Below are positions 5,860 through 63,513 of a stretch of DNA of 64,000 nt, piece by piece. Location: contig CP129473.1 in assembly GCA_030583745.1 (NCBI GenBank), forward strand, positions 140,551 through 204,550, in the 5' to 3' direction. Numbering within the stretch: the first letter of the stretch is position 1; every line of letters starts with the position of its first letter. The notes under the pieces are model-generated. The model was given only the letters and a program-made list of their open reading frames with translations, was not told the DNA's origin and ran no database searches. Both the position numbers and the translations under genes were made by a program. The stretch comes from Minisyncoccota bacterium (GTDB taxonomy: Bacteria; Patescibacteriota; Minisyncoccia; Phycocordibacterales; BOKC01).

Positions 5860-5890
5860 TTGGCTATATCCCATACCCTAAACCCTAATT
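5860..5890. repeat. Dispersed heptamer repeat copy C
   Basis: ttggctatatcccataccctaaaccctaatt. Confidence 0.6.
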
Positions 5891-12659: not shown

Positions 12660-12683
12660 TATTCTATAGAATGTTGGAATGTT
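12650..12683. promoter_or_regulatory. 34-bp perfect palindrome, copy 1 (candidate operator/terminator)
   Basis: aacattctaatattctatagaatgttggaatgtt, 19 bp upstream of the ndh ATG. Confidence 0.5.
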
Positions 12684-12701
12684 TATCCGTAAAATTTAAA
12701 A

Positions 12702-14775: not shown

Positions 14776-14809
14776 AACATTCCAACATTCTATAGAATGT
14801 TGGAATGTT
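14776..14809. promoter_or_regulatory. 34-bp palindrome, copy 2
   Basis: aacattccaacattctatagaatgttggaatgtt, about 70 bp upstream of the ArsR-like gene. Confidence 0.5.
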
Positions 14810-14879
14810 GTGTGTTAAAATAAAGAAAATAAATTTTAAGATAAAATAAAATTAGAAAATTGAAATAAGAGAAAATAAA

Positions 14880-15149
14880 ATGAAAACAGCCAAACAGTTG
14901 GAAAGATATTTCAAGGGGTCAGCCAATCACTGGCGGATTGCTATTTTGCTTTTAGTTGAAAAAAATGACGGGATTACTGTGGAGGGAATTACCAAAAGTT
15001 TTGACAAATCTGATTTTAAAAATATTTCCCAACACACTCATCGCTTGGTTCAGGCTGGTCTTTTAAATAAAAAATACCAAGGGCGGCAAGTTATTCACCG
15101 ACTTTCGCCTTATGGATTGGCCTTTGTTAAATTTATAAAAACATTCTAA
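14880..15149 (+). CDS. ArsR/SmtB-family winged-helix transcriptional regulator
   Basis: WRIAILLLVEKNDGITVEGI...SQHTHRLVQAGLLNKKYQGRQVIHRL; 89 aa. Confidence 0.6.
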   Translation: MKTAKQLERYFKGSANHWRIAILLLVEKNDGITVEGITKSFDKSDFKNISQHTHRLVQAGLLNKKYQGRQVIHRLSPYGLAFVKFIKTF

Positions 15150-15173
15150 TATTCTATAGAATGTTGGAATGTT
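15140..15173. promoter_or_regulatory. 34-bp palindrome, copy 3
   Basis: aacattctaatattctatagaatgttggaatgtt; overlaps the ArsR-like stop codon, 14 bp upstream of the Nudix ATG. Confidence 0.5.
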
Positions 15174-15186
15174 TTCTTGGTAAGAA

Positions 15187-18960: not shown

Positions 18961-19036
18961 GTAAAGAACCTACCCAACCTCTCCGTGAACACTCACAGAG
19001 ATAAAGGTTAGATCTATACTTATGTTGGCGGGGTGG
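18961..19036. repeat. 75-bp direct repeat R1 with an internal palindrome ctctgtgaacactcacagag
   Basis: Near-identical to 21176..21250. Confidence 0.8.
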
Positions 19037-19933: not shown

Positions 19934-21016
19934 TCAGTCAGGTATCTTTCCTGACCTCAGCATTTCAATGAACATGTCAGACATGACAACCCCAGTTAGG
20001 AACTCAAGCCAGAGCCACTGCCCGTTGGGATTCAAGTCGACAAAAAACTCTTTCCCGTCCTGATCCACCAAAAAGTCCATTGAGCTGAAGGGAAGGTTGA
20101 AGTGATTAAGCACACCGAGGATTTTATCCCGCATATCTTTGGAGATACTGTAGGGGGTATACTCTACCTTCCCCAGCTCTCCTGACCTGATATCAAGAGG
20201 GCGGCCGCCTTTCATTGTTGCTTTGAAAGCGAAGAGATGCCTCCCGATAGCCACAATACGTAGCTCGTGCAGTACCGATATCTTTTCTTGGAAGATGGTT
20301 GGGCAAACGTAGAGTGAAGGATTTTCAAGGTCGTCCCTTGTAACTTCTTGAGTACGCAAGACATGGTAAGTGTCTTCTGATTCTACAAAGGGCACCTTGA
20401 GTGATTTTACGACCACCCCATTTGCACACTCATGGTAGAATGTTTCAATCAACCGGCGGTCCCTAGTTATGAGTGTCTTCGGTACGTTCAAGCCGACTTC
20501 GTGGGCGACAGAGAGTTGGTTTGGTTTTACTCTGGCTTTGTACAGGAGCCATGGCGCAGTTACCCAAAAGGCGGACCCGAAAGCAAAGGTGATGCTCTTG
20601 ATCCACTCCTTGGTTTCTCCCTTGAAGAATTTCAAACCGACTTCGTCAAGCATCTCCGCCGCCTTCTTATCTGAAGAAGGCCTTCGGTACCAGACAGATC
20701 TAACATCTGTTTCCGTGACAGATTCTTGCTCTCTGCAGTCCAACAAAGTCAGCTGATTGGAGTCCGGTTTGAGACCAATTTCGTATCTGTCCAGTTCGTT
20801 TGTGTTAAACCTGAAGACTTGTACGCCAGTTTCCTGCATTCTTGAGCAGATAAAATCAGCATGGGTGTCGAAGTCGCTTGTGATAACTAAGGTAACGTCT
20901 TTCATTTTTGCACAATCCTTTTTCTTCTGTTTGACGTTCCGTGATGAAATTACCCGAAGATACTTTGAAAGTATCTTCGGGTATGTAGAACGAAGTAGCC
21001 GTTGAAGCTCAGTCAT
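19934..21016 (-). CDS. Microviridin/graspetide-type ATP-grasp ligase (MdnC/MvdD-like)
   Basis: Pre-ATP-grasp N-domain VTLVITSDFDTHADFICSRMQETGVQVFRFNTNEL; ATP-grasp core; start ATG overlaps the precursor stop (TGATG). Confidence 0.7.
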   Translation of the reverse strand: MTELQRLLRSTYPKILSKYLRVISSRNVKQKKKDCAKMKDVTLVITSDFDTHADFICSRMQETGVQVFRFNTNELDRYEIGLKPDSNQLTLLDCREQESVTETDVRSVWYRRPSSDKKAAEMLDEVGLKFFKGETKEWIKSITFAFGSAFWVTAPWLLYKARVKPNQLSVAHEVGLNVPKTLITRDRRLIETFYHECANGVVVKSLKVPFVESEDTYHVLRTQEVTRDDLENPSLYVCPTIFQEKISVLHELRIVAIGRHLFAFKATMKGGRPLDIRSGELGKVEYTPYSISKDMRDKILGVLNHFNLPFSSMDFLVDQDGKEFFVDLNPNGQWLWLEFLTGVVMSDMFIEMLRSGKIPD

Positions 21017-21162
21017 CAATCCGACTGAGCATCGTCTGCCACCGGCGGGGTGCGGCAGTAGGTATCACCACTGCAAACCGCAGAAGCAGAATCAGGTTCC
21101 GGTTGATTTTCGCTTTTCGGGATTTCCAGAGACTTCTCGAGGAGAAATGGTTTGTTTTCCAT
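21016..21162 (-). CDS. Graspetide precursor peptide (48 aa)
   Basis: MENKPFLLEKSLEIPKSENQPEPDSASAVCSGDTYCRTPPVADDAQSD. Leader PFLLEKSL resembles the PFFARFL recognition helix; core rich in Thr/Ser/Asp; RBS aagga. Confidence 0.6.
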   Translation of the reverse strand: MENKPFLLEKSLEIPKSENQPEPDSASAVCSGDTYCRTPPVADDAQSD

Positions 21163-21175
21163 TTTCAGTCCTTTT

Positions 21176-21250
21176 CAAAGAACCACTTCTAACCTCTCTG
21201 TGAACACTCACAGAGATAAAGATTAGATCTATACTTATGTTGGCAGGGGG
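21176..21250. repeat. 75-bp direct repeat R2
   Basis: aaagaaccacttctaacctctctgtgaacactcacagagataaagattagatctatacttatgttggcagggggg. Confidence 0.8.
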
Positions 21251-21408
21251 GCGTTTGTTGTCAACTTCATGCCAAAAAATTATCCACAGGGTGATTTAGC
21301 TTGGTTTTATGATTTGTTTTTGAGACTTTGTTTTTACCTATTGCTTATTATCAACAACCCCATCAAAAACCATTTACATTTGGGGTTCTTGTTTTTAATA
21401 AAAAGTTA

Positions 21409-29988: not shown

Positions 29989-30072
29989 AAAGTAGGAAAA
30001 GTCTGGGTGGCGAGCGAAGGCGTCGGCAAGGGGGTTGAGTTTGTGGTGGAATTACCAACAACTAGGGTCTAG
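29989..30072 (+). pseudogene. 3' fragment of a histidine kinase gene (HATPase_c C-terminus only)
   Basis: KVWVASEGVGKGVEFVVELPTTRV* parallels the C-terminus of the 26872 kinase (RVWVESEGEGKGSEFIAELP); no start codon; stops upstream. Confidence 0.5.
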
Positions 30073-30112
30073 GGGTTAGGGTATAGGGTTTGGCCACTAG
30101 CCAATAGGGCGG
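30062..30112. repeat. Dispersed heptamer repeat copy D (inverted orientation)
   Basis: Reverse complement ccgccctattggctagtggccaaaccctataccctaacccctagaccctag. Confidence 0.6.
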
Positions 30113-40022: not shown

Positions 40023-40125
40023 GTTTGTTCTTTGTCGTTGAGTTGTTTTATGAAGAGGGTAGTGTGTTGCTACTCTCATCACCCCCCGTCCTATTTCTTG
40101 GAGGACATACTGAAAGGAGCGAAAA

Positions 40126-40992
40126 ATGTTGGAGATTTTCCGTTTTGACTTGAGAGAGAATCCGAAGACGGGCAAGCCTCAGTGGCAGGCCCGACGGAAA
40201 GGCAGAGACGGCACGACGTGTTATATTGTCCCTGATGAGAGTCCCAGATTCCCCTCGTATGAGCAGGATGTTTGGCTCTGCGAGATCGGGGATCCGGTCT
40301 TCCTGTATCAGGACAAGAAGTCCCGAGTCGTTCAGGTCCGGCTCATCGCGCCGTGGCCGGAGAGGATGAAGCTTCTCTTTGTGCTTGGAGAGCGCGACGA
40401 GAAGCCCTTCTGGAGCGCGTCCGGGCGTGTCGGACCGGTGAATGTCACTTTCGTTGTCCACAAGTACAGCGAGGTGTCGCCTGATGAGACCAGTCCCGTC
40501 TGGAACTGCGGGCTGGATACCTTCATCATGGCCCAGAACCAGTACCGGATCATCGTTCCGGTTTGGCCGGAAGGACCGGTGGAAACCGAGCTCAGGACTC
40601 TTGACTTCACTGAAGACGAGAGCCCTGAAGGACGAGCCCAATTCGCCTGCCAATCGGCAAGCGACGGGGTCACCGTCAGGTATGTGGTTGACCGAGACCA
40701 CTACCTGCGCGTCAAAAACTCTGGCGAGTCCCGCTGGAGTTGTGCCTTCAAGCGGGATCTCTACACAAGCCCACTCTCCCGTGTGATCGCGGTCGTTCCC
40801 GTGTCTCCTGTGCCTCTCACCGCCCGAGGGAAAAGGCGACGGGAGAGACGTGAAGAGAGGGCGATTCGCAAGGCAGCAAGGCTCGAGGCCGAGCGCGAAT
40901 CGGCTCGGAAGCGCGCTGCCGAACGTCTGACGGGTGGTGGCACCCGGCGCTCCAACGGCGGTAAGAACAACAAGAAGGCTGCCACTACCTAA
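40126..40992 (+). CDS. GC-rich hypothetical protein with a basic C-terminal tail
   Basis: RBS gaaaggag; protein-like composition. The antisense ORF 40048..41058 is a GC shadow. Confidence 0.55.
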   Translation: MLEIFRFDLRENPKTGKPQWQARRKGRDGTTCYIVPDESPRFPSYEQDVWLCEIGDPVFLYQDKKSRVVQVRLIAPWPERMKLLFVLGERDEKPFWSASGRVGPVNVTFVVHKYSEVSPDETSPVWNCGLDTFIMAQNQYRIIVPVWPEGPVETELRTLDFTEDESPEGRAQFACQSASDGVTVRYVVDRDHYLRVKNSGESRWSCAFKRDLYTSPLSRVIAVVPVSPVPLTARGKRRRERREERAIRKAARLEAERESARKRAAERLTGGGTRRSNGGKNNKKAATT

Positions 40993-41007
40993 ACCTAACA
41001 ACTCAAT

Positions 41008-41036
41008 ACCGCACCTGCACCCCCGAGCCGTATGGG
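41008..41036 (+). terminator. Rho-independent terminator
   Basis: cacccccgagccgtatgggggtgtttttt. Confidence 0.7.
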
Positions 41037-41170
41037 GGTGTTTTTTGTTGATAAACAAATATCCGAGAGTAGTAACCGCTCTCGGTTTATTTTTTTTTAT
41101 TCTCTGTGGATTTTATTGTTGAAAATAAATAAGATAAGGTATAAAATTCTTTTCCAGGTTAATAGTTCTT

Positions 41171-51601: not shown

Positions 51602-52837
51602 ATGCGTTCAGATAGCAAAATGAATCCTTCGCTTGCTAAAAAAATAAAAAACCTGCCGGATTCTCCTGGTGTTTATTTATTTTCAGCGAGAGGGGGTAAA
51701 ACGGAAGACGAAAAAATTCTTTATATTGGTAAAGCCACGTCTCTTCGGAACAGGGTAAGAAGTTATTTTAATGGAAACTTATTATTTTCTCGCGGCCCCT
51801 TGATTGCCAAGATGGTTGAGGAAATAAAAAATATAAAGTATCAAAAAACCGATTCTGTCCTTGAGGCGCTTATCTTAGAGGCCAATTTAATTAAAAAATA
51901 CAAACCGAAATACAATACTCAAGAAAAAGATGACAGGAGTTGGAATTATATTGTGATAACCGACGAAGATTTCCCTAGAATTCTCACCATCCGCCAAAAA
52001 GAACTCGCCCTAGACCCTAAACCCTATACCCTAATGGCTAGCTTCGGTCCTTTCCCCCACGGAAACCAATTAAAAGAGGCCTTGAGAATTCTTAGAAAAA
52101 TCTTTCCTTTCTACTCGAGCGACACAAAAAACACCCAAGGTGAAAGATTTTACAAAGAAATAGGATTGGCTCCAAACCAAAACAAATCTGACTATCAAAA
52201 AACAATTAGTCATCTAAAACTCTTCCTTGAGGGTAAGAAAAAACAAATTATTTTTAATCTAGAAAAAGAGATGATGGGTGAAGTCAAAAAACTCAATTTT
52301 GAAAAAGCGGGGGAGTTGAGAAACAAAATATTTGCTTTAAAACACATACAAGACATTGCCTTACTGAAGAATTTGGATGAAAGTGGTGTAGACCAAGGGA
52401 ATTTTCGAATAGAATCTTATGACGTGGCACATATTTCAGGGACATTTATGGTTGGCGTGATGGTTGTCCTTGAAGAAGGAATTTTCAAAAAAAGTCAGTA
52501 CAGAAAATTTAAAATAAAAAAAACAGAAGGAGGCGACACATCAGCTCTATCTGAAATTATCGATAGAAGATTTAACCACGCCGAATGGCAGATGCCAAAT
52601 CTTGTCTGCGTTGATGGCGGAATAGCACAAAAAAACGTAGCAGAAAAAATTTTAAGAAAAAAAGATTTATTCATTCCGGTAGTTTCAGTTGTTAAAGACA
52701 AAAAACACAAACCGAAACAAATCCTCGGGGATAGAAAAACGATTGGTAATCGGCAAAAAGAGATTCTTCTCATCAATCAAGAAGCTCATCGTTTCGCCTT
52801 ATCTTTTCATAAAAAATTGAGAGACAAAATTAATTGA
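51602..52837 (+). CDS. uvrC: Excinuclease ABC subunit C, short form lacking the C-terminal HhH domain
   Basis: GIY-YIG N-terminus GVYLF..ILYIGKA; UVR domain; RNase H-like endonuclease region. Confidence 0.8.
   Translation: MRSDSKMNPSLAKKIKNLPDSPGVYLFSARGGKTEDEKILYIGKATSLRNRVRSYFNGNLLFSRGPLIAKMVEEIKNIKYQKTDSVLEALILEANLIKKYKPKYNTQEKDDRSWNYIVITDEDFPRILTIRQKELALDPKPYTLMASFGPFPHGNQLKEALRILRKIFPFYSSDTKNTQGERFYKEIGLAPNQNKSDYQKTISHLKLFLEGKKKQIIFNLEKEMMGEVKKLNFEKAGELRNKIFALKHIQDIALLKNLDESGVDQGNFRIESYDVAHISGTFMVGVMVVLEEGIFKKSQYRKFKIKKTEGGDTSALSEIIDRRFNHAEWQMPNLVCVDGGIAQKNVAEKILRKKDLFIPVVSVVKDKKHKPKQILGDRKTIGNRQKEILLINQEAHRFALSFHKKLRDKIN
52008..52041. repeat. Dispersed heptamer repeat copy E, located in-frame inside uvrC
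   Basis: ccctagaccctaaaccctataccctaatggctag encodes LDPKPYTLMAS. Confidence 0.55.
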
Positions 52838-53870: not shown

Positions 53871-53961
53871 GTTTTTGTACTAACCATCTAATTTTGGTGG
53901 TGTTTGTTTGAAAAAGTCAGGACCCATTTCGAGCAGAACCCCGACTAATGTGCCACGCGCG

Positions 53962-54102
53962 GAGCGCGGTAGGAATGCGTGGCGGATTTTTGCCAAAGCT
54001 TGTATAGATGACGAAATTGTGGTAGCTTATTTCTGGATGAAATCCATGGTGGATTTCTCAAATTGCACATTCACAACTGAAAAAGGAGATCAAAATGGAA
54101 AC
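53962..54102 (+). repeat. Left copy of a ~140-bp inverted repeat carrying a shared promoter/leader/RBS/ATG for radical SAM gene 1
   Basis: Near-identical to the reverse complement of 63228..63366; contains alternative hairpins tggatgaaatcca / gaaatccatggtggatttc and RBS aaaggag. Confidence 0.8.
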
Positions 54103-55090
54103 AAGAATTGGACGTCAATACATCACTTCGAGGCAAGAACTCGGAATTGCTCGATCCGAAACACTTCAACATCTCTTTGAAAATCATTCAAAATCCTCAA
54201 CAACTGAAAATAAGGTGGGGTTCGCTTCACTTTATGTGACAGGACGTTGCCACCTGAACTGTCCACACTGTTACGCTGAAGAGGAGTTTGCTGGACTTTC
54301 AAAAGATGCTTCGACTGAACAGATGGTGAGAATCATCAACTTTCTGTGCCAGTTGACGAGCAGAATACAGCTCACTGGTGGGGAAATTTTCGTCCGAGCA
54401 GATCCTGAGTCTCGACGAAATGACACCCTTCTTTTGGTAGATGAAATCTCGCAACGCAATCGGGAAGTGATTATACAAACCACAGGAATGCATATCACTG
54501 TTCCAATGCTTGAGTTTTGTGCTGTACGTAACGTGAAGTGGTTTTCGCTTTCACTTGACGGTCCAGATGCAGAATCAAACAGTCTCATCCGAGGAAACGA
54601 CTCTGCGTTTACAAAGACAATAGAGTTAATTCCCCAGCTGAAACAATTCGGTTTTAAAGTAAAAGTCGGAACCACAATGACGGCCATTACCCAAAAACGA
54701 GAGAATCTTATCAGGGTTGGAGAGTTGATGGCGAAACTCGGCGTTGACAATTGGAAGATCACACAATTCTTCGGTCGGGAAAAGGGTCGAGCATCTGGAG
54801 AAAATGCACATTGGCTTAGTGTGCCTGACGAGCTCTTTTATTCTCTTACCACGGAACTGCAGAATATGTTTCAAGGCAAAGAGATGAGGGTGACGACACA
54901 TAGCGTCAATGACTTTTCTTCAAGCCCTGCTCTATTGGTTCAGCCCACAGGCATAATAACGGTGACTCACGGGGCTGACGATGTGTACGTTGGGAATGCC
55001 CTCACGGACAAACCAACAGACACAATTGCACGACTAGAATCAATGAGCGGAATCACTTCAATTCAGGTCAACGCCCAAAAGACTTACTAA
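54095..55090 (+). CDS. Radical SAM enzyme 1 (CxxxCxxC, no obvious SPASM domain)
   Basis: GRCHLNCPHCY cluster; GGE motif QLTGGEIF; LSLDGPDAESNSLIRG. Confidence 0.8.
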   Translation: METRIGRQYITSRQELGIARSETLQHLFENHSKSSTTENKVGFASLYVTGRCHLNCPHCYAEEEFAGLSKDASTEQMVRIINFLCQLTSRIQLTGGEIFVRADPESRRNDTLLLVDEISQRNREVIIQTTGMHITVPMLEFCAVRNVKWFSLSLDGPDAESNSLIRGNDSAFTKTIELIPQLKQFGFKVKVGTTMTAITQKRENLIRVGELMAKLGVDNWKITQFFGREKGRASGENAHWLSVPDELFYSLTTELQNMFQGKEMRVTTHSVNDFSSSPALLVQPTGIITVTHGADDVYVGNALTDKPTDTIARLESMSGITSIQVNAQKTY

Positions 55091-55104
55091 AAGAGGAGTA
55101 ATCT

Positions 55105-55833
55105 ATGAAGCCACTTTTTTCTCGAGAAGAGATGGAGAATGTTCTGAATTCTCCTAGGAAAGGAAGCGGATCAGGAATTGGCCTTTACCGTGAGGGATAT
55201 CGAACTCATGGTATTAATTTCTGGGGAATGAAGGTTGGAAGCAAAGTCCAAGAGTTTCTTGATAGAAACTCTAACACTGACTGGAGCCAGTCTTCTGTAC
55301 TGGAAATCGGTGCAGGCACGGGAAAAAATATCTTCGAGCTTGTTCGTATAGGTGTAAATAGGGCTGTTGCTGTAGAGATTGATTCAATTGCAATCAGTGT
55401 CTTTGTTGACACCCTCGTTCGTCTCGAAGAATGTGGACTTGTGCCCGAAGGCCGGGTTTCTATAGTGAAAGATGATGCACTACAGTTTCTGCGACACAAC
55501 AGTGAGCGGTTTGATATCGTTGTTTGCTATGGTGTACTGCACGTTTTGAAACAGCAAGAACAACTCGTTTTGTTGGCGAAAAGCGTGACAAATGCCGTAG
55601 CAAAAGGCGGTCATCTCATACTTCAAACAATCACTAACAAATATCCAGCACCAGCCTCACAGCCTGAGCTTGAAGGAGTGATCGTCACACCTAGACTAGT
55701 GAAAGAATTGTTCCCAAAGGATATATGGGAGATAATAAGTTGGGATGAGGAAGATATCGTCCATAGTCATCTAGGCTCAGAAGAAGATCATCGTCACGGC
55801 TCCGTCCGTTCAATTTTTAGGAGTCTACGGTGA
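55105..55833 (+). CDS. Class I SAM-dependent methyltransferase
   Basis: Motif I VLEIGAGTGKN. Confidence 0.75.
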   Translation: MKPLFSREEMENVLNSPRKGSGSGIGLYREGYRTHGINFWGMKVGSKVQEFLDRNSNTDWSQSSVLEIGAGTGKNIFELVRIGVNRAVAVEIDSIAISVFVDTLVRLEECGLVPEGRVSIVKDDALQFLRHNSERFDIVVCYGVLHVLKQQEQLVLLAKSVTNAVAKGGHLILQTITNKYPAPASQPELEGVIVTPRLVKELFPKDIWEIISWDEEDIVHSHLGSEEDHRHGSVRSIFRSLR

Positions 55834-56007
55834 AGAGTCCGAAGACAACATGGCCCTGACTGTCATAGCACAGTCAGGGCTTTCTTTATCATCTTTGGTA
55901 ATACTTTTGGACATACACTGAAGTATATGTTATGATATCGCAAGCCTTGGGATAATCTCGAGGTTTTGTTCTTTTACAATCCAATCCTGAAAGGAGGAAC
56001 AGCACGT

Positions 56008-56286
56008 ATGCGCACAGCAGAAGAAGTCATGATGCGCTGCAAGCTCATCCTCGATCAGCCGGACATCGTCCTTCTGGTCGATAAGAGCAGCAGTCCAACG
56101 GCGGCCTACGACATGGTCATGGACGCAACCCACAACGACGAGACCGCGAAAGCGGCTCGCTGGCTCGGCGTATTGAGAAGGGATTACCCCGATCGCTACG
56201 CCGAAATCACCCACAACACTCTCAGCCACGTTCAGAGGAACACGGCGAGGAAAGGAGAACGGAATGAAAACGACGTATGCAGTTGA
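56008..56286 (+). CDS. Small hypothetical protein (92 aa)
   Basis: RBS aaaggagg upstream of the ATG; overlaps the next gene by 23 nt. Confidence 0.4.
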   Translation: MRTAEEVMMRCKLILDQPDIVLLVDKSSSPTAAYDMVMDATHNDETAKAARWLGVLRRDYPDRYAEITHNTLSHVQRNTARKGERNENDVCS

Positions 56287-57586
56287 CCTACTCCACAGTC
56301 CTTCTGATGGAACGACGGTTGTGCTCTACGGTTGGGTGAAAGCCCGCCGGCGACATAATCACGTCGTTTTTCTGGACATCACGGACTCCACTGGTTCGGT
56401 GCAGTGTGTGGTCGAAGCTGGCAACAAGCCCGCTTTTGAACTCGCGCGGCGCATGAACCAGGAAACGGCGGTTAAGATCACTGGTGTCCTTGCGGATACT
56501 GGCCGAGCGAACCCGCAGCGGGAAATCCGCGTCGACAATATCGAGGTCATCGGCGTGAGCACCATCAGTGTCTCTCCGTATCCGCGGGGAAACATCGACA
56601 TTCAAGACCCGAGGTTGCAGGAGCAACTTTTGGACAAGCGGCATTTCTATCTCCGCAACGAGAAATTTGCCGCCATCCTGAAGTTTCGTCACGTCCTCAC
56701 AAGGATCGTGCATCAATGGTTCCATGAGAATGGGTTCATTGAGATCCACGCTCCGGTGCTGACACCAACGCCGCTGTACGACGATCGTACGGCTATGGCA
56801 ATCAAGGTACATGAGCAAGATGTATACCTGACACAGTGTGTTGGGTTCTATCTCGAACAAGCAGTTCATGCTCTCGAGAAGATCTACAACATCGGTCCCA
56901 GCTTCCGCGCCGAGGAGAGCCGCTCCAAGAGACATCTCATGGAGTACTGGCACATCAAGGCAGAGTTGGCGTTCGTGGACTTTGAGGACATGGCCTCAGT
57001 AGTCGAGCGGTTCATCCATGATGTGAGCGAGCAGTGTATCCGCGAGGGTCGCGAGCTTGCAAACATTATCGGCACCGAGATATGTGGCGACGGACTTAAA
57101 ACTCCGTTTCCGCGCATTGACTACGCCGAGGCGGTGGAGTGGCTCAAGACGCAGGGTTCCGATATTGAGTTTGGCAAAAGCATGGGTTCCGACGAGGAAA
57201 CTATGCTCTGCCAGCGGTTCGGCGACACTCCGTTTTGGATTGTCGGCATTCCACGACCCATCGAACCCTTTCCTTATGTGATTGACGCAGCCGATACTCG
57301 TCGAACGAAGACGGCTGATTTGATCGCAAGTCGAGGGTTTGGTGAGCTTCTCGGTATTGCCGAGAAGATTCATTCTCTGTCGATGCTCGATGAGCGGCTG
57401 GCAGAGAAAGGTAAAGCCGGTGACGCCCGCTACGAATGGTTGCGGGACCTTCGTCAATACGGTTGTGTACCGCACGGAGGGTTTGGTATGGGGCTTGAAC
57501 GGTTCATCCGTTGGCTCTTGCAGATCCCGCATGTGCGAGACACCATTCCTTTTCACCGAGCGTTCAGTAGGAGGATTGATCCATGA
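56264..57586 (+). CDS. Class IIb aminoacyl-tRNA synthetase paralog, AsnRS-like (archaeal/eukaryal type)
   Basis: N-terminal OB fold VVLYGWVKARRRHNHVVFLDITD; motif 2 FRAEESRSKRHLMEYWHIKAE; motif 3 GGFGMGLERF. Confidence 0.7.
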   Translation: MKTTYAVDLLHSPSDGTTVVLYGWVKARRRHNHVVFLDITDSTGSVQCVVEAGNKPAFELARRMNQETAVKITGVLADTGRANPQREIRVDNIEVIGVSTISVSPYPRGNIDIQDPRLQEQLLDKRHFYLRNEKFAAILKFRHVLTRIVHQWFHENGFIEIHAPVLTPTPLYDDRTAMAIKVHEQDVYLTQCVGFYLEQAVHALEKIYNIGPSFRAEESRSKRHLMEYWHIKAELAFVDFEDMASVVERFIHDVSEQCIREGRELANIIGTEICGDGLKTPFPRIDYAEAVEWLKTQGSDIEFGKSMGSDEETMLCQRFGDTPFWIVGIPRPIEPFPYVIDAADTRRTKTADLIASRGFGELLGIAEKIHSLSMLDERLAEKGKAGDARYEWLRDLRQYGCVPHGGFGMGLERFIRWLLQIPHVRDTIPFHRAFSRRIDP

Positions 57587-57638
57587 GTACCACATACGCC
57601 AAGCCAATCACGGCAAGGCATACCAAAAGGAGAACATC

Positions 57639-58946
57639 ATGCAAAGAACACTGATCAAGCAACTCGGATCCGAGGTCGGCAAGACCGTTCGGATCTGCGG
57701 ATGGGTGGGAACGTTCCGCGATCAAAAGCGGATGCAATTCATTATCGTCCGTGACCACACCGGCAATGTACAGGTGGTGCACGAGAAGTCGGCAAACGCC
57801 GAACTGACGGCAACAATCGCCAGCCTCACATCCGAAAGCGCAGTGGAAATCATCGGCAAGGTTATTGCCAATCCTATGGTCAAGCTGGGCGGGATGGAAG
57901 TGATGGCCGAATCAGTGAACATCGTCAGCAAGGCGGAAGCACTTCTGCCGTTTGGCGAAAGCCCGACCATCGAAACTCGACTGGACTGGAGATTTCTGGA
58001 CCTGCGTACTCCGCAGAACCTACTGATCTTCAAGATTCAGACGGCGGCCGAACACGCTATGCGTTCGTTCTGGACGGCGGAGGGGTTCATCGAGATGCAC
58101 TCCCCGAAGTTCATGGGTAGCGCAAGCGAGTCCGGTGCGGAGCTCTTCGAGGTAAAGTACTTCGACCGCAAGGCGTATCTCGCTCAGTCGCCTCAGTTTT
58201 ACAAACAGATGGCGATGACGGCGGGGTTCGACCGCGTGTTCGAGATCGGGCCGGTCTTTCGGGCCAACCCGTCCTTCACTTCGCGGCACGACACGGAGTT
58301 CACCAGCGTGGACGTCGAAATCTCGTGGATTGACTCCCACGAGGACGTCATGCAGCTTGAGGAACGTTGGCTTCGCCATGTGCTTCAGGTGGTGAAAGCC
58401 GAGTACGGCGAGGAGATCAAGGCGACGTTCGGCACGGAGATCACGGTTCCCGAGCTTCCGTTTCCGCGTGTGACTATGGAAGAGGCGTACAACATCCTCG
58501 ACCAGATGGGTCACCGAATCGAGCGGGGCGAAAAGGGCGACCTCGATCCGGAGGGCGAGCGACTCTTGTGTCGACACTTCCACGAGAAGACCGGCCACGA
58601 GTTCGTCTTCGTCACCGAGTACCCTGCTGTGGTGCGAGCGTTCTACCACATGCGTCCCGAAGGAAAACCCCATCTCACTAAGAGCTTCGACCTTCTCTGG
58701 AAGGGACTTGAAGTGACGACAGGGGCGCAAAGGGAGCATCGCTACGAGATCTTGGTGGAGCAAGCCAAGGAGAAGGGGCTCTTGCTTGAGCCCATCCAGT
58801 ACTATCTGGACTTCTTCCGCTACGGCTGTCCGCCTCACGGCGGTTATGGCTTCGGTCTCACCCGTATGCTCATGGTGATGCTGAGCGCGAAAAGCGTGCG
58901 TGAGGTGACGTACCTCTACCGAGGCGTCAACCGACTCACTCCGTAA
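57639..58946 (+). CDS. aspS: Archaeal-type aspartyl-tRNA synthetase, GC-rich xenolog; motif 2 is FRAN rather than FRAE
   Basis: OB fold; YFDRKAYLAQSPQFYKQMAM; FRANPSFTSRHDTEF; GGYGFGLTRM. RBS aaaaggagaac upstream. ORF track start 57339. Confidence 0.75.
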   Translation: MQRTLIKQLGSEVGKTVRICGWVGTFRDQKRMQFIIVRDHTGNVQVVHEKSANAELTATIASLTSESAVEIIGKVIANPMVKLGGMEVMAESVNIVSKAEALLPFGESPTIETRLDWRFLDLRTPQNLLIFKIQTAAEHAMRSFWTAEGFIEMHSPKFMGSASESGAELFEVKYFDRKAYLAQSPQFYKQMAMTAGFDRVFEIGPVFRANPSFTSRHDTEFTSVDVEISWIDSHEDVMQLEERWLRHVLQVVKAEYGEEIKATFGTEITVPELPFPRVTMEEAYNILDQMGHRIERGEKGDLDPEGERLLCRHFHEKTGHEFVFVTEYPAVVRAFYHMRPEGKPHLTKSFDLLWKGLEVTTGAQREHRYEILVEQAKEKGLLLEPIQYYLDFFRYGCPPHGGYGFGLTRMLMVMLSAKSVREVTYLYRGVNRLTP

Positions 58947-59019
58947 GGAGGGGATCGACAACCAACAAGGCTCTGATTGTGTTTATCACAGTCAGAGCCT
59001 TTTTTCTTGCTATTGCTGT

Positions 59020-59272
59020 ATATATATCTTACTGCTATTATAGAAACATAAAGGCATTGAAGCTGCTGACACAGCTGAGCCAAGGGAAGAAATCTCGTAA
59101 AAGAGAAATTAGAGCCCTTCGGGATAAGCCCGTAATAGCTTCGAGTCGTAGTAAGGCGACGATGAGGTTCGGTATTGCCGAACAAAGTAAGGTGGCACCG
59201 CGAAAAGATCGCCCTTACAAGTTCATCGATTTTTAATCGGTGATTTTGTAAGGGTAATTTTTATTTAGAAAT
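59020..59272 (+). promoter_or_regulatory. T-box riboswitch leader (Asp-specific by inference) upstream of aspS
   Basis: Conserved T-box sequence agtaaggtggcaccgcg at 59184..59202; terminator hairpin cccttacaa...ttgtaaggg plus U-run at 59212..59266. Confidence 0.5.
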
Positions 59273-60589
59273 ATGCAGAGACTTCATATAAACGAAATTA
59301 AAGAACATATTGGAAAAAAGGTTAAGATTGCTGGTTTCGTCCAGACTATACGCGATCAAGGGAGCATCAAGTTTCTTCTGATACGCGACATTACGGGAGT
59401 TATTCAAGTTGTGGTCACCAAACATAGCCCCGATGCTTTAGCTATAGCAAAAACTCTTACTCACGAATCAATAGTGGAAATCGTTGGTTTAGCTAAGGAG
59501 GAAAAGCAAGCTCCTGGAGGTTTTGAAATTGAAGTAGAAAAACTCATAATTTTATCTCTTGCCGACCCAGAACTACCGATACCGATTATAGTGAAGGGAC
59601 AGCAAGGAGAAACAGAACAATCAATACGTCTTGATTGGCGTTGGATTGATCTGCGCAAGCCTCAAGGGTCACTCACATTCAAGGTATGGACCGAGCTTGA
59701 AGCAGCTTTCCGCGAATTTTGGACAAAAAACGGTTATATAGAAATACATTCTCCGAAACTAATTTCTACCGCAAGTGAGTCCGGTGCGGAAGTATTCGAG
59801 GTTAAATACTTTGATCGCAAGGCATATCTAGCTCAATCTCCGCAATTCTACAAACAGATGGCGATGTCAGCTGGATTTGAAAGAGTTTTTGAAGTCGGAC
59901 CGGTGTTCAGAGCGGAGCCATCATTTACATCGCGACATGCCACAGAGTTTACTGGTTATGACGCTGAAATATCATACATTGAGTCTCATGAAGACGTAAT
60001 GCAAGAGGAAGAGAAGGTTATCCAATTCGCCGTCAGTAAGGTAAAGGAGAAATTCGGCGAGGAAATAAAACAGGTTTTCGCCAGAGAAGTCGTAGCCCCG
60101 ACACTTCCATTCCCTAGATTGACTATCAAAGAGGCTAAAACGATACTTACCGAAATGGGCGTAACCGGAGAAAAGGACGGGGACTTGTCGTCAGAAGAAG
60201 AACGCAAGATTGGTGAGTATGTAATGAATACATTTGGCCATGAGTTTGTGTTTATCACTGAATATCCAGCAAAAGATCGTGCTTTCTATCATATGCGCGA
60301 TGAAAATGATAAAACTCTCACAAAAGGTTTTGACCTTCTTTGGAACGGTCTTGAAGTAACCACTGGCGCTCAACGAGAACATCGCTACGATGTGCTTGTA
60401 AAGCAGGCGAAAGAGAAAGGAATGGATTTAGAGTCTTTGAAATTCTATTTAAACTTCTTTAAGTACGGCTGTCCTCCACACGGCGGCTTCGGTATGGGGC
60501 CAAACAGGATGATTATGAAATTGCTCGGCATAGACAATGTACGAGACGCGATGTTTATCTACCGCGGAGTAAAACGCCTTGAACCATAA
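59273..60589 (+). CDS. aspS: Archaeal-type aspartyl-tRNA synthetase (intermediate-GC copy with a T-box leader, enclosed by the terminal inverted repeats)
   Basis: FRAEPSFTSRHATEF; GGFGMGPNRM; about 80% nucleotide identity to the GC-rich copy over conserved blocks, with third-position differences. Confidence 0.85.
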   Translation: MQRLHINEIKEHIGKKVKIAGFVQTIRDQGSIKFLLIRDITGVIQVVVTKHSPDALAIAKTLTHESIVEIVGLAKEEKQAPGGFEIEVEKLIILSLADPELPIPIIVKGQQGETEQSIRLDWRWIDLRKPQGSLTFKVWTELEAAFREFWTKNGYIEIHSPKLISTASESGAEVFEVKYFDRKAYLAQSPQFYKQMAMSAGFERVFEVGPVFRAEPSFTSRHATEFTGYDAEISYIESHEDVMQEEEKVIQFAVSKVKEKFGEEIKQVFAREVVAPTLPFPRLTIKEAKTILTEMGVTGEKDGDLSSEEERKIGEYVMNTFGHEFVFITEYPAKDRAFYHMRDENDKTLTKGFDLLWNGLEVTTGAQREHRYDVLVKQAKEKGMDLESLKFYLNFFKYGCPPHGGFGMGPNRMIMKLLGIDNVRDAMFIYRGVKRLEP

Positions 60590-60596
60590 ATAAAAA

Positions 60597-60626
60597 GTCT
60601 CCCGAACGAATCGTCGTTCGGGAGAC
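60597..60626. terminator. Bidirectional terminator between the convergent operons
   Basis: gtctcccgaacgaatcgtcgttcgggagac. Confidence 0.75.
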
Positions 60627-60640
60627 TTGGTGTTGGCACA

Positions 60641-61687
60641 TTATGCCCATCTCTTTTCCAAGGATAAGTAATTCTTGTAAGAAGATAGTAGGGCGCCTTG
60701 TCGGTTGTGATTAGAGATCGCTTCCTCAATATCCTGCTTAGTGTCGTGATTATCTCTTGCGCGGACACGCAACACTTCACAAGCAATTGTTGAAAGCATA
60801 TCTGCCCAAACCGGATTAAACTCATCCCAGACTTGCTTCAGAGCAGCTTGCAGTGTAGACAAAGAACCCACATCCTCTCGTATCCTCTGTTCTTCAGAAA
60901 CCAGTAATTTCCTGGTTTCCTCTGAAAAAGACTGGATTGGCGTCATTCTCTTTGACTGTTGTATTTCCGACACAAATGATGGTATAAAATCGAAATCCTT
61001 ACCTCGAAGGTGTGCGGAAACTGCTGTGTGCCAATATGATCCAACTTCCATACCGACTCGTGCCGCCATGCATTCCTGCAAGAGGGAAAAATCAAAGATG
61101 TTGTAGGGTAAGAGTTTTACCACATCATTGGCTCGCATACAGACCGTTGAATGCAAGACATTTCCCCTTGGCATAAATACTATGCTCATTGCGCATGGAA
61201 TGTCGCGAGAATCAATTCGCTCCAAATCACCACTGTCGTAAACGGTGATCACGGCACGTTTTGTGTCTGGTCGTTGAGCGATGAGTTTTGCAACTATTTC
61301 AAACTGGTTATCAATCGGTTTGTTTCCGAATATCCGCTTTCCATAAGATGAACCAGGAATTGTTTCTCCGTCATCAGAGAACTGACGAACTCTATCCGTG
61401 TAGAACGCGATTGGATCAAGCAGATTTGAGCCCGATAGCATATACATGAATCGGGCGACTGCAAGGCCAGGATTGAATATCGGAAACAATCCGCTCCCCA
61501 GTATCCTTTTTCTTGGATCAGTGAGACACACCGAAGCATTCCACACTTCTTTGATCGTTTGACCATGGTTCATGGAGAGATCACTTGATTTGTACGTGAG
61601 ACCATGATCCATGATTTCTTTGGCGACGAGTCTAACGACGATGTTAACGTCGTCGCTAGACAGACAGATTTGCTTGGAACACCACAT
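60641..61687 (-). CDS. Thymidylate synthase-fold enzyme (ThyA / dCMP/dUMP/CMP hydroxymethylase family)
   Basis: Catalytic Cys context DIPCAMSIVF (PCH-like); RANDVVKLLPYNIFDFSLL parallels RSADVFLGVPFNIASYALL; PIFNPGLAVARFMYMLSG parallels FPLLTTKRVF...ELLWFLKG. Confidence 0.65.
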   Translation of the reverse strand: MWCSKQICLSSDDVNIVVRLVAKEIMDHGLTYKSSDLSMNHGQTIKEVWNASVCLTDPRKRILGSGLFPIFNPGLAVARFMYMLSGSNLLDPIAFYTDRVRQFSDDGETIPGSSYGKRIFGNKPIDNQFEIVAKLIAQRPDTKRAVITVYDSGDLERIDSRDIPCAMSIVFMPRGNVLHSTVCMRANDVVKLLPYNIFDFSLLQECMAARVGMEVGSYWHTAVSAHLRGKDFDFIPSFVSEIQQSKRMTPIQSFSEETRKLLVSEEQRIREDVGSLSTLQAALKQVWDEFNPVWADMLSTIACEVLRVRARDNHDTKQDIEEAISNHNRQGALLSSYKNYLSLEKRWA

Positions 61688-61690
61688 ATC

Positions 61691-63235
61691 TTATCCTCCT
61701 TTCTGTTTCCAGTTGGTGATTGTCTTTCTGATTCGCGACTCGTCTTCTTTACTCACCTGATCCAACCAGACACTCTCTTCATTCCCGATAATGGGATCAA
61801 GAACACGTGGAGCATGTTCACTTCCTACAACCGGAAGTCGAGCGTGTGGTTTTGAAGTAAGATACATCTGCTTAAGATTCGCGTCTGACAGGTTAATAAG
61901 TTCTCGAACCAGTGGGTTCTCGAACTCCACTCCACCGATAGCGCGATCTTTCAGAATGCGTATGGTGAGATAGAGACGAAGAGCAGAAGTTTCCATTGCT
62001 GTGAACGGAATTTGGAAGACGAAGTTACGCGCATCCAAGATTTTATCGAGATCTGACTCGACCTCTTTAGCATACGCAAGCAGCACGTCCGTGGGTTCCG
62101 AAACAGCAGTACGCTGTAGAATGTCTTGGGAAACCTGATTCCAGTACTCATTCCATGACCCAATAGATTCTATTGGCAACCATGTATCCGGTGCAGAAGC
62201 GTTAATAATGAATCGCCCGTCTGCAGGAAGATACACGCACAGGCGCTTTTCTTTTTGTTTTCTGGGAGTTATATAACGCTCTGCCCCGGAGAGTTCCGAC
62301 TGCCAGTAGCTATGTCCTCGCAAGACAGTTTCGTAGAAGTTGTGACCTTCTCCATGTCTTCCACGCAAGGAAAGATTGAAGAAAGAATTACCAACCTCTT
62401 CCTCTTCTTTGATTTCACGCCACGAAGTCCCTGGAACCTCTGAACGACTTAGCTTCTTGCCGAAACCCAGGAAATATACCGGTTTGTAGATCACTGGGAT
62501 TTCGATATCATCAACGACCAACCATCTCGTTGGGAAACCATCAATGATGGGCAGGTTTTTCACGGGATCGTTGTCGTTTTTTACAGGGACGAGTTTTGCT
62601 CGCAGTTCTTTCGCAAGAAGTACATCTAGGTTTTCTCTAGGATCAAGCAGGGTTCTCACTATTGGACGAATGGTCAATCCTTCTTGAGTATGCAGTTTTG
62701 CGTATTTAATTACCCGTGCGACATTTTGAACGGACACCTTGTGAAAAGTGTCAAAGCTGATCCGTATCACGAAATCAAGCTTCTTATTTCTCGCTTGGTT
62801 GCCACGCAACATCGCAGAAGTAAGCTGATCCAGGACAAGACGAGTTTCTTCTTCGCTGTTCGCGAAGTACAAGCTTGTGATACTCACAACTTGCCGAATG
62901 TGCCGGAGGTGTTCGACCGCGTAACACATCGAGTCGAGGTTTTCGTAGGACTCTCCGCCACCAGAGAAAACAACAAGCTCCAGACCTGATTCATTCATGA
63001 TGTGTACGAAGCGCTCAATTTGTCTCATCGAGACTGCTGGAGGATTTCCGCCAAAGATTTTGGTTGTCAAAGCGGCAGAGAACAAGCAATTCGGACAAGT
63101 TAGAGCGCATTTATCAGCAGCGTTAACTACCGCAACGGAGACTCCAGGATTTGCGATTACTCCAAGTTCTGGCGTATGTTGGACAATGTAACTCCGGACT
63201 TTTTGAGAGAGTTTGGATGTGAAGATTGTTTCCAT
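61691..63235 (-). CDS. Radical SAM enzyme 2 (CxxxCxxC) with a ~250-aa C-terminal extension of unknown function
   Basis: DKCALTCPNCLF; VVFSGGGESYENL; true start METIFTSKL at 63235. ORF track extends to 63310 into the leader. Confidence 0.75.
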   Translation of the reverse strand: METIFTSKLSQKVRSYIVQHTPELGVIANPGVSVAVVNAADKCALTCPNCLFSAALTTKIFGGNPPAVSMRQIERFVHIMNESGLELVVFSGGGESYENLDSMCYAVEHLRHIRQVVSITSLYFANSEEETRLVLDQLTSAMLRGNQARNKKLDFVIRISFDTFHKVSVQNVARVIKYAKLHTQEGLTIRPIVRTLLDPRENLDVLLAKELRAKLVPVKNDNDPVKNLPIIDGFPTRWLVVDDIEIPVIYKPVYFLGFGKKLSRSEVPGTSWREIKEEEEVGNSFFNLSLRGRHGEGHNFYETVLRGHSYWQSELSGAERYITPRKQKEKRLCVYLPADGRFIINASAPDTWLPIESIGSWNEYWNQVSQDILQRTAVSEPTDVLLAYAKEVESDLDKILDARNFVFQIPFTAMETSALRLYLTIRILKDRAIGGVEFENPLVRELINLSDANLKQMYLTSKPHARLPVVGSEHAPRVLDPIIGNEESVWLDQVSKEDESRIRKTITNWKQKGG

Positions 63236-63366
63236 TTTGATCTCCTTTTTCAGTTGTGAATGTGCATTTGAGAAATCCACCATGGATTTCATCCAGAAAT
63301 AAGCTACCACAATTTCGTCATCTATACAAGCTTTGGCAAAAATCCGCCACGCATTCCTACCGCGCC
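63228..63366 (-). repeat. Right (inverted) copy of the ~140-bp repeat: promoter/leader/RBS/ATG for radical SAM gene 2
   Basis: Reverse complement matches 53962..54102 almost base-for-base, through ATGGAAAC. Confidence 0.8.
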
Positions 63367-63439
63367 CAGCGGGGCGTCCTCATTCGTGGGGGTTCTCCGC
63401 AAAATCGCTCCGTTTCTTTAATTCCGAACAAGTTTCGTT

Positions 63440-63513
63440 TGGTGGACCCGAGGAGAATCGAACTCCTGCTTCAGCAATGCGAATGCTGCGTAATACCACT
63501 TTACTACGGGCCC
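63440..63513 (-). tRNA. tRNA-Ala (anticodon CGC) with encoded CCA
   Basis: Cloverleaf GGGCCCG/CGGGUCC acceptor with a G3:U70 pair, A73, anticodon loop UUCGCAU, T-loop GGAGUUCGAUUCUCC. Confidence 0.9.

Follow-up and report, generated by a model that had tools for sequence, protein, structure and literature searches.

An aspartyl-tRNA synthetase-linked cassette of radical SAM and thymidylate-synthase-fold enzymes, split between inverted repeats in a Candidatus Paceibacterota genome

Genes and inverted repeat of the locus

The 64,000-nt stretch of contig CP129473.1 analysed here (the window) belongs to a Candidatus Paceibacterota genome of the Candidate Phyla Radiation (CPR). It contains a 9.4-kb segment in which two radical S-adenosylmethionine (SAM) genes, rSAM1 and rSAM2, face each other between inverted repeats; the rSAM2 protein is identical to QY304_01005 of the metagenome-assembled genome. 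On the plus strand are rSAM1 (54095–55090), a class I SAM-dependent methyltransferase (55105–55833), a terminator-like hairpin 3' of the methyltransferase (55852–55888), orf92 (56008–56286), an asparaginyl-tRNA synthetase (AsnRS)-like gene (56264–57586), and two aspartyl-tRNA synthetase (AspRS) genes (57639–58946 and 59273–60589). The minus strand carries a gene of the thymidylate synthase (TS) fold (ThyA-like, 60641–61687) and rSAM2 (61691–63235). We refer to rSAM1, the methyltransferase, rSAM2, and the ThyA-like gene as the cassette. A preliminary description of this DNA had listed a methyltransferase, a 92-aa open reading frame (ORF), an AsnRS-like synthetase, and an AspRS between the repeats. 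These genes are all there, but three class IIb synthetases rather than two pass the Pfam tRNA-synt_2 model (56264–57586, 57639–58946, and 59273–60589), and rSAM2 and the ThyA-like gene are separated by 3 nt instead of 4. The tRNA-Ala(CGC) gene (63440–63513, minus strand), a neighbour outside the system, has its 3' end toward the repeat, as had been described.

The repeat, proposed to be 140 bp long, proved to be nearly perfect over about 147 nt. Pairwise alignment of 53900–54130 with 63200–63430 showed about 99% identity between 53958–54104 and the reverse complement of 63226–63371, with one 1-nt indel, and a repeat finder reported two adjoining arms (53958–54063/63266–63371, 106 nt, 98%, and 54061–54104/63226–63269, 44 nt, 98%). 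The ribosome-binding site (RBS) GGAG (54085–54088), the ATG, and the next seven bases (ATGGAAACAA) are all inside the identical stretch; thus, one leader and start serve two different inward-facing radical SAM genes, in agreement with the preliminary description. Because the repeat reaches past the ATG, both proteins start with Met-Glu-Thr. The left copy (53958–54104, plus strand) comprises the putative promoter, the leader, the RBS, and the first 10 coding nucleotides of rSAM1, and the right copy (63226–63371, minus strand) is fused in frame to rSAM2. Beyond the sharp edge of the repeat, the flanks are about 65% alike for about 38 nt (53920–53957 versus 63372–63411). Including this diverged outer part, which brings the total to about 185 nt, blastn aligned the two sides with 91% identity over 177 nt.

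Contigs from independent assemblies break within the repeat. Logan assemblies from six or more other sequencing runs contain a 9181-bp contig (L001) with both ends inside the repeat, each 20 nt upstream of a start codon, and the contigs of an 84%-identical relative (L014) likewise end inside it. These breaks led us to conclude that the repeat is real and not an assembly artefact. Comparison across the loci fetched for this work (see below) showed that the leader sequence is lineage-specific. It was undetectable upstream of the cassette in any fetched locus except at the contig ends of L001–L004 and L014, and an exact 30-nt leader pattern had no match in the JGI metagenomes. The 22 nt seen at the L014 contig ends have a G in both L014 copies where both window copies have an A. 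The copies are about 99% identical, while the outer extension is about 65% alike and the coding DNA is 82–87% identical to that of L014 (13–18% different). Their near-identity suggests that gene conversion or strong selection may have acted on the repeat, an argument based on little sequence.

The leader had also been described as containing mutually exclusive hairpins. Both overlapping sequences exist (54034–54046 and 54039–54057), but a switch formed by them found no support. The leader matched no Rfam family at the gathering score (best E 2–10, to unrelated families), its folding energy was no better than that of shuffled controls (z = +0.6), the eight upstream regions compared shared no consensus structure, and the sequences are not conserved outside the lineage. 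A riboswitch or attenuator in the shared leader was consequently rejected as unsupported. The 8+3+8 palindrome at 54039–54057, GAAATCCAtggTGGATTTC, could equally serve as a protein operator. A loose likeness among the leaders, "TTnACAAyyrA + RBS", was noticed by eye only.

The cassette in other genomes and its enzymes

The surroundings of homologues were collected from NCBI, ENA, JGI, Logan contigs, GTDB species representatives, and JGI metagenomes, and their ORFs were scored against the window proteins. Clusters of rSAM1, the methyltransferase, and rSAM2 that have an AspRS gene within 6 kb were found at 24 distinct loci, showing that these genes also occur together in other genomes, as had been expected; the fourth gene is either ThyA-like or encodes an unrelated 340–405-aa protein. 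No AspRS was seen in ten loci, all of which are contigs cut within or beside the cassette. Since an AspRS is found in every locus with enough flank, the synthetase linkage is a property of the cassette. With 24 loci, three cassette types, and no counter-example among loci with both flanks visible, it is among the tightest neighbourhood signals obtainable. The earlier view that extra synthetase paralogs form part of the module thus holds for AspRS, the conserved partner, but not for the AsnRS-like gene, which belongs to a separate mobile block described below. These results show that the cassette is a horizontally mobile set of nucleotide-type enzymes tied to AspRS. Full-text literature searches found no description of the gene set.

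The loci fall into three types. In type I, from CPR genomes, rSAM1, the methyltransferase, rSAM2, and the ThyA-like gene are contiguous and co-oriented in most lineages (L005, L020, and L036 from Staskawiczbacteria; L012 and L039). In one type I group, rSAM1 is divergent from the rest (L008, L011/L022, L023, and L040), and two lineages have the ThyA-like gene on the opposite strand (L017 and L019). Type II, from low-GC CPR genomes, has the 340–405-aa protein instead of ThyA (L013, L024, L025, L041, L042, L046, L049, L050, L056, and L059). Type III, with 0.69 GC, is a co-directional series of rSAM1, methyltransferase, rSAM2, ThyA, and an archaeal-type AspRS (L029, L054, L055, and L060), whose actinobacterial-type neighbours include Lsr2, an XRE-family regulator, and CRISPR-Cas genes or an integrase; tblastx synteny of the high-GC loci was swamped by compositional noise. 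The methyltransferase, which passes its Pfam model and is TehB-like but otherwise unspecific in family searches, is co-oriented with and directly upstream of rSAM2 in all loci with an unsplit layout. The AspRS gene is inside the operon in L013, L019, L029, L041, L046, and L047, and two AspRS genes are present in the window, L005, L020, L036, L040, L049, and L059. The 340–405-aa protein of type II displays the conserved Cys/His motifs NEGCxxxCPYQxxHQ and AKCKY. It gave a sub-threshold match to Peptidase_U32 only (E 0.0076), and profile-versus-PDB and NCBIfam searches returned nothing.

rSAM1 has a viperin-like fold with a single CX3CX2C cluster motif. It exceeds the threshold of Pfam PF04055 (56.7 versus 29.5 bits), and CHLNCPHC at residues 52–59 is invariant in 39 of 39 homologues; 42 relatives were found. 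Although it matches PADLOC pVip profiles, rSAM1 differs from viperin and the pVips in several respects. It scored 51.9 bits against NCBIfam NF038283 (prokaryotic viperin), the cut-off of which is 180, its cluster-flanking motif is different (ASLYVTGRCHLNCPHC), its family has its own invariant C-terminal N-x-x-K-T-Y, and it has no nucleotide kinase partner.

The other radical SAM enzyme, rSAM2 (514 aa), combines an EpeE/YydG-like core with a C-terminal domain of about 210 aa without an assignable match. The preliminary assignment of both proteins as radical SAM enzymes holds by Pfam for rSAM1, but rSAM2 remains below the PF04055 gathering threshold (17.7 versus 29.5 bits), though its CX3CX2C motif is present. 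Neither protein has a PF13186 match or an extra conserved cysteine indicative of a SPASM or twitch domain. Compared with EpeE/YydG, rSAM2 shows only 11–14% identity and scored 17.1 bits against TIGR04078 (YydG/EpeE epimerases; cut-off 300). It also has the extra C-terminal domain and no conserved precursor-peptide gene nearby. The three radical SAM cysteines are the only ones conserved in the family, with no auxiliary cluster or Cys H-donor as in EpeE. The family consists of 27 clusters among 5.8 billion proteins and about 13 full-length representatives among 1.84 billion 50%-identity representatives, and no homologue was found in 50,697 phage or 72,556 plasmid records. rSAM2 appears to represent a new and very rare radical SAM family with an EpeE-like core and no Pfam model. 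An exhaustive profile search revealed relatives of the core fused to other domains, which is a further difference from EpeE/YydG. P0171 joins a full-length rSAM2 module to an HD phosphohydrolase and DUF218 (Pfam) and to an HxGH nucleotidyltransferase-like motif recognised by eye. In the other three, an rSAM2-like core is fused to uracil phosphoribosyltransferase (UPRTase; P0183), histidine phosphatase (P0181), or carbamoyltransferase (P0186). Such fusions suggest that the substrate is a nucleotide or nucleoside rather than a peptide.

The viperin-like fold of rSAM1 raises the question of whether the cassette is an antiviral or conflict system. Such a system would make a toxic or chain-terminating pyrimidine nucleotide by the logic of viperin, with AspRS as a co-selected neighbour or a decoy. 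The pVip matches of rSAM1 agree with this, and so do the integrase, XRE-type regulators, Lsr2, and CRISPR-Cas genes near the cassette on high-GC contigs and the defence-like surroundings of distant ThyA-like relatives (AbiH, ImmA/IrrE, and restriction endonuclease). However, the NF038283 score of rSAM1 is far below the cut-off for prokaryotic viperins, no PADLOC system fits the gene set, and rSAM2 homologues are absent from the phage and plasmid records. Since a defence role would also leave the consistent AspRS linkage without a reason, we regard it as quite improbable.

The ThyA-like protein was assigned to its fold by PF00303 (53.5 bits, threshold 24.3), and the catalytic-Cys motif, DIPC, is kept in 10 of 10 family members, confirming the preliminary description of a ThyA-fold gene next to rSAM2. 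The best PDB match was MilA (5b6d/5jnh, E 8e-28), followed by thymidylate synthase (2.5e-12). MilA is the CMP 5-hydroxymethylase of mildiomycin biosynthesis, and its specificity residues have been defined (PMC5175136). We mapped these positions on an alignment of the ten ThyA-like members. As in MilA and BcmA, the CMP 5-hydroxymethylases for mildiomycin and bacimethrin, the nucleophile Cys155 and the ribose-preference residues Lys133 (9/10) and Ala176 (10/10) are kept. In contrast, the cytosine-specifying Asp186 of MilA is replaced by Asn in all ten members, the uracil type also seen in dUMP hydroxymethylase and TS. At the positions of Glu68 (10/10) and Tyr218 (9/10) there is Arg, the alignment near Glu68 being less certain. 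The protein is therefore predicted to be a C5 enzyme for ribo-uridine nucleotides whose chemistry is altered or whose substrate is more anionic. Further differences from these nearest relatives, the MilA/BcmA nucleoside monophosphate hydroxymethylases, are a C-terminal extension of about 110 aa and the partners, which are radical SAM enzymes and AspRS rather than the MilB/BcmB N-glycosidase. Distant ThyA-like relatives do adjoin genes of the nucleoside 2-deoxyribosyltransferase (N-glycosidase) family, as in MilA/MilB and BcmA/BcmB. The close clade has about two dozen members, and plasmid "thymidylate synthase" relatives (27–38% identity) occur in unrelated contexts. Two enzyme families within the cassette appear new. 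Whatever the product, the new rSAM2 family and a ThyA-fold clade predicted for ribo-uridine nucleotides stand, as do the AspRS linkage and the recent synthetase transfer described below.

Composite make-up and origin of the segment

The preliminary description had presented the methyltransferase, the 92-aa ORF, and the AsnRS-like and AspRS genes as GC-richer than the genome and the 9.4-kb segment as one horizontally acquired island. The composition is indeed foreign in part, but not throughout. The backbone genes have a mean GC of 0.374 and a third-codon-position GC (GC3) of 0.33 ± 0.05. GC3 is mildly raised in the four cassette genes (0.37–0.45) and strongly raised (0.62–0.75) only in orf92, the AsnRS-like gene, and the second AspRS gene (57639–58946), and the third synthetase gene (59273–60589) has a GC3 of 0.39, close to the host.

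The AspRS encoded at 59273–60589, referred to as clade a, is the native enzyme, and that at 57639–58946 is referred to as clade b. Both are of the archaeal type and, alone among the proteins of the segment, score above the curated threshold for a family of defined function (NF003483, 514.6 and 490.8 bits, respectively; cut-off 353). Both possess an OB-fold, a class II core, and a QSPQ motif, and they may be of the non-discriminating type. The AsnRS-like protein, named asparagine--tRNA ligase by NCBI, is below the curated AsnRS cut-offs (NF003037, 325.1 versus 414 bits; TIGR00457, 306.0 versus 342.6 bits). Upstream of the native aspS lies a predicted T-box leader (59048–59219, plus strand; Rfam RF00230, gathering score 93, with 53.7 bits and E 3.9e-11 for the 400 nt searched). 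Its stem I is truncated and unusually short, with a loop CUGACA containing the Asp specifier GAC, and GGUGGCACCGCG is present. The leader is conserved in L014 and L030, and the native AspRS is 72–86% identical to the cassette-adjacent AspRS of L014, L005, and L020. aspS at 59273–60589 is the housekeeping gene.

orf92, for which Pfam, NCBIfam, and PADLOC gave no family match, forms a GC-rich 3.0-kb block (55951–58968, plus strand) together with the AsnRS-like and clade b AspRS genes. The block is 92.1% identical over 3019 nt to positions 7314–10331 of L030 (GCA_964399075.1), where it again stands beside an aspS with the predicted T-box, although the native AspRS there is just 66% identical in amino acid sequence and there is no radical SAM cassette. 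It is absent from L014, in which the terminator of the methyltransferase runs directly into the predicted T-box region. About 50 nt at 55838–55887 recur at 58955–59004 and thus bracket the block, and nucleotides 1765–1814 of L014 match both copies. The 90%-identity cluster of the clade b AspRS has 58 members, compared with 1–6 for the neighbouring genes. The GC3 values, the absence from L014, the 92.1% match to the cassette-free L030, and the 58-member cluster led us to conclude that the block is a separate and recent transfer, a clear case of synthetase transfer between CPR lineages (92% nucleotide identity versus 66% amino acid identity of the native orthologue). The GC3 of clade b is about 0.72 in three CPR lineages with genomes of about 0.39–0.40 GC, and the AspRS of the 0.69-GC operons groups with clade b (57–58% identity) rather than clade a (46–49%); a high-GC source would be compatible with these values.

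Some further observations concern the AspRS sequences. Clade b displays a correlated change in motif 2, from FRAE...RHA to FRAN/D...RHD/N. In clade c (L008, L019, L022, and L023), His of PPHGG is changed to Glu and QR(E/I)H to RR(I/V)N. An extra AspRS-like gene of 0.51–0.52 GC is present beside the type II cassette in L049 (3854–5206) and L059 (609–2039), whose genomes have 0.34–0.37 GC. The two genes echo, in a different lineage, the pattern of the GC-rich second AspRS.

The split, inward-facing layout, with rSAM1, methyltransferase, and aspS on one strand and ThyA-like and rSAM2 on the other, is confined to the window and L014, its 84% relative. Because of this restriction, we interpret the repeat as a copied leader and not as a transposon end. 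The Staskawiczbacteria layout, in which rSAM1, methyltransferase, rSAM2, and ThyA are followed by a convergent aspS, can be converted to that of the window by a single inversion of [rSAM2-ThyA-aspS]. rSAM1 starts with "ME.." in three other lineages (L005, L020, and L008), and rSAM2 generally with M-x-x-(I/L)F; the window rSAM2 starts with MET-IF, its length unchanged. We infer that the ancestral [rSAM2-ThyA-aspS] segment was inverted, which would have split the cassette, and that the rSAM1 leader with its first three codons (the "ME" start) was then copied in frame onto rSAM2, probably preserving co-expression of both halves. The 3.0-kb foreign block was added later, after the methyltransferase gene. 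A duplicated control region is an ordinary evolutionary device, of which this repeat is an unusually clean example: both halves of a split operon are kept under one control region.

A composite transposon-like element had been among the earlier proposals. In a composite transposon or invertible element, the repeats would be termini or recombination sites, and the whole 9.4-kb unit would move or flip and would have been integrated at tRNA-Ala. Near-identical 147-nt inverted repeats around a GC-raised region beside a tRNA gene are what such an element would leave, and homologous recombination between the arms could flip the segment with its expression unchanged. However, no transposase, integrase, or recombinase domain was found in any ORF of 46.6–64 kb (the window ends 490 nt past the tRNA). 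The repeats end inside two coding sequences, contrary to what defines transposon termini, and their edges coincide with a leader plus start codon that is joined in frame to each of two genes. The segment also holds the native aspS, with its predicted T-box, at near-host GC. In most related loci rSAM1, the methyltransferase, and rSAM2 are contiguous, none of the loci sequenced through the promoter region has the repeat, and their genomic neighbourhoods differ. We therefore rejected a composite transposon or insertion sequence and regard a mobile or invertible unit of any such kind as highly improbable. The tRNA-targeted island suggested by the position of tRNA-Ala was rejected as well. Only one copy of the tRNA 3' end exists, with no att repeat, no integrase was seen, and a scan of 13 related loci revealed no tRNA beside the module, the sole tRNA found being a tRNA-Ser about 4.7 kb away in L022. 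In contrast, a duplicated leader of a split cassette, a composite "island", and independent mobility of the synthetase block are, taken together, very probable. What had been called a 9.4-kb island consists of three parts, namely the split cassette, the native aspS with its predicted T-box, and the 3.0-kb GC-rich block.

Possible function of the cassette and other features of the window

Among known systems, the albomycin cluster offers the closest parallel to the combination of genes found here. Albomycin is made by a pyrimidine nucleoside pathway whose cluster contains a paralog of the target synthetase, the seryl-tRNA synthetase (SerRS) paralog AbmK, which serves both seryl-adenylate supply and producer immunity (PMC9032320). 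The cluster also encodes the synthetase-like ligase AbmF, the radical SAM enzyme AbmJ, the methyltransferase AbmI, and the carbamoyltransferase AbmE (PMC9032320). The present cassette likewise combines radical SAM enzymes and a methyltransferase with a synthetase paralog, and, as in the albomycin producer, a second, divergent synthetase copy stands beside the housekeeping one. An extra copy of the putative target synthetase inside or beside the cluster, the feature by which clusters for synthetase inhibitors are recognised, is thus present. In addition, L017 has a truncated gene resembling methanogen-type SerRS or amino acid-carrier-protein ligases, together with a nucleoside phosphorylase-family gene, a second methyltransferase, and an MFS transporter, and the fusion of an rSAM2 relative to carbamoyltransferase recalls the albomycin enzyme set.

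On this analogy, the cassette would tailor a uridine ribonucleotide or nucleoside by means of the MilA-like C5 enzyme (whose specificity residues are of the ribo and uracil types), the viperin-fold radical SAM enzyme, the methyltransferase, and the second radical SAM enzyme. This would yield an aspartyl-adenylate-like antimetabolite that targets AspRS, and the linked AspRS paralog would supply aspartyl-adenylate, give self-immunity, or both. Insensitive synthetase copies can spread horizontally, as in the case of mupirocin-resistant isoleucyl-tRNA synthetase. The clade b AspRS would be a resistance copy comparable to such transferable synthetases, with the free-moving AspRS/AsnRS block acting as a transferable resistance cassette; more speculatively, an acquired AsnRS would bypass the dependence on AspRS for Asn-tRNA. 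Of the three readings offered in the preliminary description, this corresponds to the aminoacyl-nucleoside pathway with synthetase paralogs, which fits best with the nucleotide-type enzymes and the AspRS linkage; a hypermodified-pyrimidine pathway is compatible in part. For the overall explanation, consisting of a duplicated leader, a split AspRS-linked cassette, an added block, and a nucleoside function, we estimate a probability of roughly 60%. An albomycin-like, AspRS-directed tailoring of a uridine nucleotide is the best functional reading, but we put it forward tentatively, at somewhat less than even odds. The broader idea that CPR and some high-GC bacteria share an unrecognised pathway from a uridine nucleotide to an AspRS-directed antimetabolite, run by a UMP-type ThyA-fold enzyme and two new radical SAM families, with a GC-discordant AspRS/AsnRS cassette circulating among neighbouring CPR genomes as immunity, is more doubtful. 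Were the functional reading true, no antibiotic-type nucleoside pathway would have been assigned to Patescibacteria before this one, which would also be a new natural route to AspRS inhibition, found via the logic of resistance genes. The genomes are about 0.7 Mb in size, and each retained gene is costly.

Several points weigh against the explanation proposed here. Unless AspRS itself does so, no cassette gene is an obvious candidate for linking an amino acid to a nucleoside, and an exporter gene was found only in L017. L014 has the cassette without a second AspRS between the repeats, and the linked AspRS of clade c, clade d, and the high-GC cassettes could be the sole housekeeping copy. The chemistry of the ThyA-like enzyme may differ from that of MilA and TS, judging from the Arg residues at the positions of Glu68 and Tyr218. 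The low NF038283 score of rSAM1 and the lack of conserved auxiliary or H-donor cysteines in rSAM2 limit the analogy to characterised enzymes. The inversion and copying are a reconstruction from present-day layouts. As for the leader, a sigma-70 consensus scan found no match inside the left repeat, and a candidate extended -10 promoter (TTGTAT at 54000–54005, 17 nt, and TGgTAGCTT at 54020–54028) was assigned by eye only.

Microcin C-type peptidyl-nucleotides are natural weapons against AspRS. They are mimics of aspartyl-adenylate, including pyrimidine-based ones (PMC8323819). The cassette differs from the microcin C system in having no MccB/ThiF-like adenylyltransferase, no precursor peptide, and no MccC, MccE, or MccF homologue.

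The AspRS adjacency across the three cassette types would also be expected if the enzymes acted on tRNA (or rRNA), for example by making a C5-derived hypermodified uridine on tRNA-Asp or tRNA-Asn, such as at the shared U35. AspRS would then co-evolve with the modified tRNA, and the extra AspRS and AsnRS copies would recognise modified or unmodified tRNA. The synthetases retain their OB-fold anticodon-binding domains, and the methyltransferases show weak matches to the CmoB family. The Peptidase_U32 family, which the substitute for ThyA in type II weakly matches, includes RNA pyrimidine C5-hydroxylases, but neither profile nor PDB searches confirmed that sub-threshold match. Moreover, the nearest relatives of the ThyA-like protein are MilA/BcmA-type enzymes paired with N-glycosidases, and all characterised ThyA-fold enzymes, to our knowledge, act on free mononucleotides. 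rSAM2 relatives are fused to enzymes of small-molecule nucleotides (UPRTase, HD, and phosphatase), the synthetase block occurs in a cassette-free genome as well, and no tRNA genes are near the cassettes. We therefore consider RNA modification unlikely and prefer the tailoring of a free uridine nucleotide or nucleoside.

The rest of the window showed several other features. Telomere-like heptamer runs, CCCTA(A/T)A, gave 13 matches to CCCTAWACCCTA with one mismatch allowed, compared with 0.22 expected. The runs are located at 20–31, 930–955, 1863–1874, 5876–5887, 8767–8778, 30063–30088, and 52008–52033. Some are bracketed by CTAG, and one lies within the UvrC ORF (51602–52837). A near-perfect, operator-like 34-nt palindrome, AACATTCCAACATTCTATAGAATGTTGGAATGTT, occurs in three intergenic copies (12643–12709, 14776–14816, and 15139–15175). 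Direct repeats of 61 nt (18976–19036 and 21191–21251, 93% identical) bracket a 2.2-kb segment containing an unassigned 236-aa ORF and an MvdD-like ATP-grasp gene (19934–21019, minus strand, GC3 0.54), which may be a graspetide-type cassette. A 1-kb patch of 0.57–0.59 GC (40048–41058) has long ORFs on both strands with no Pfam match, and another GC-rich patch (209–865) contains an ORF with a Clp_N domain.

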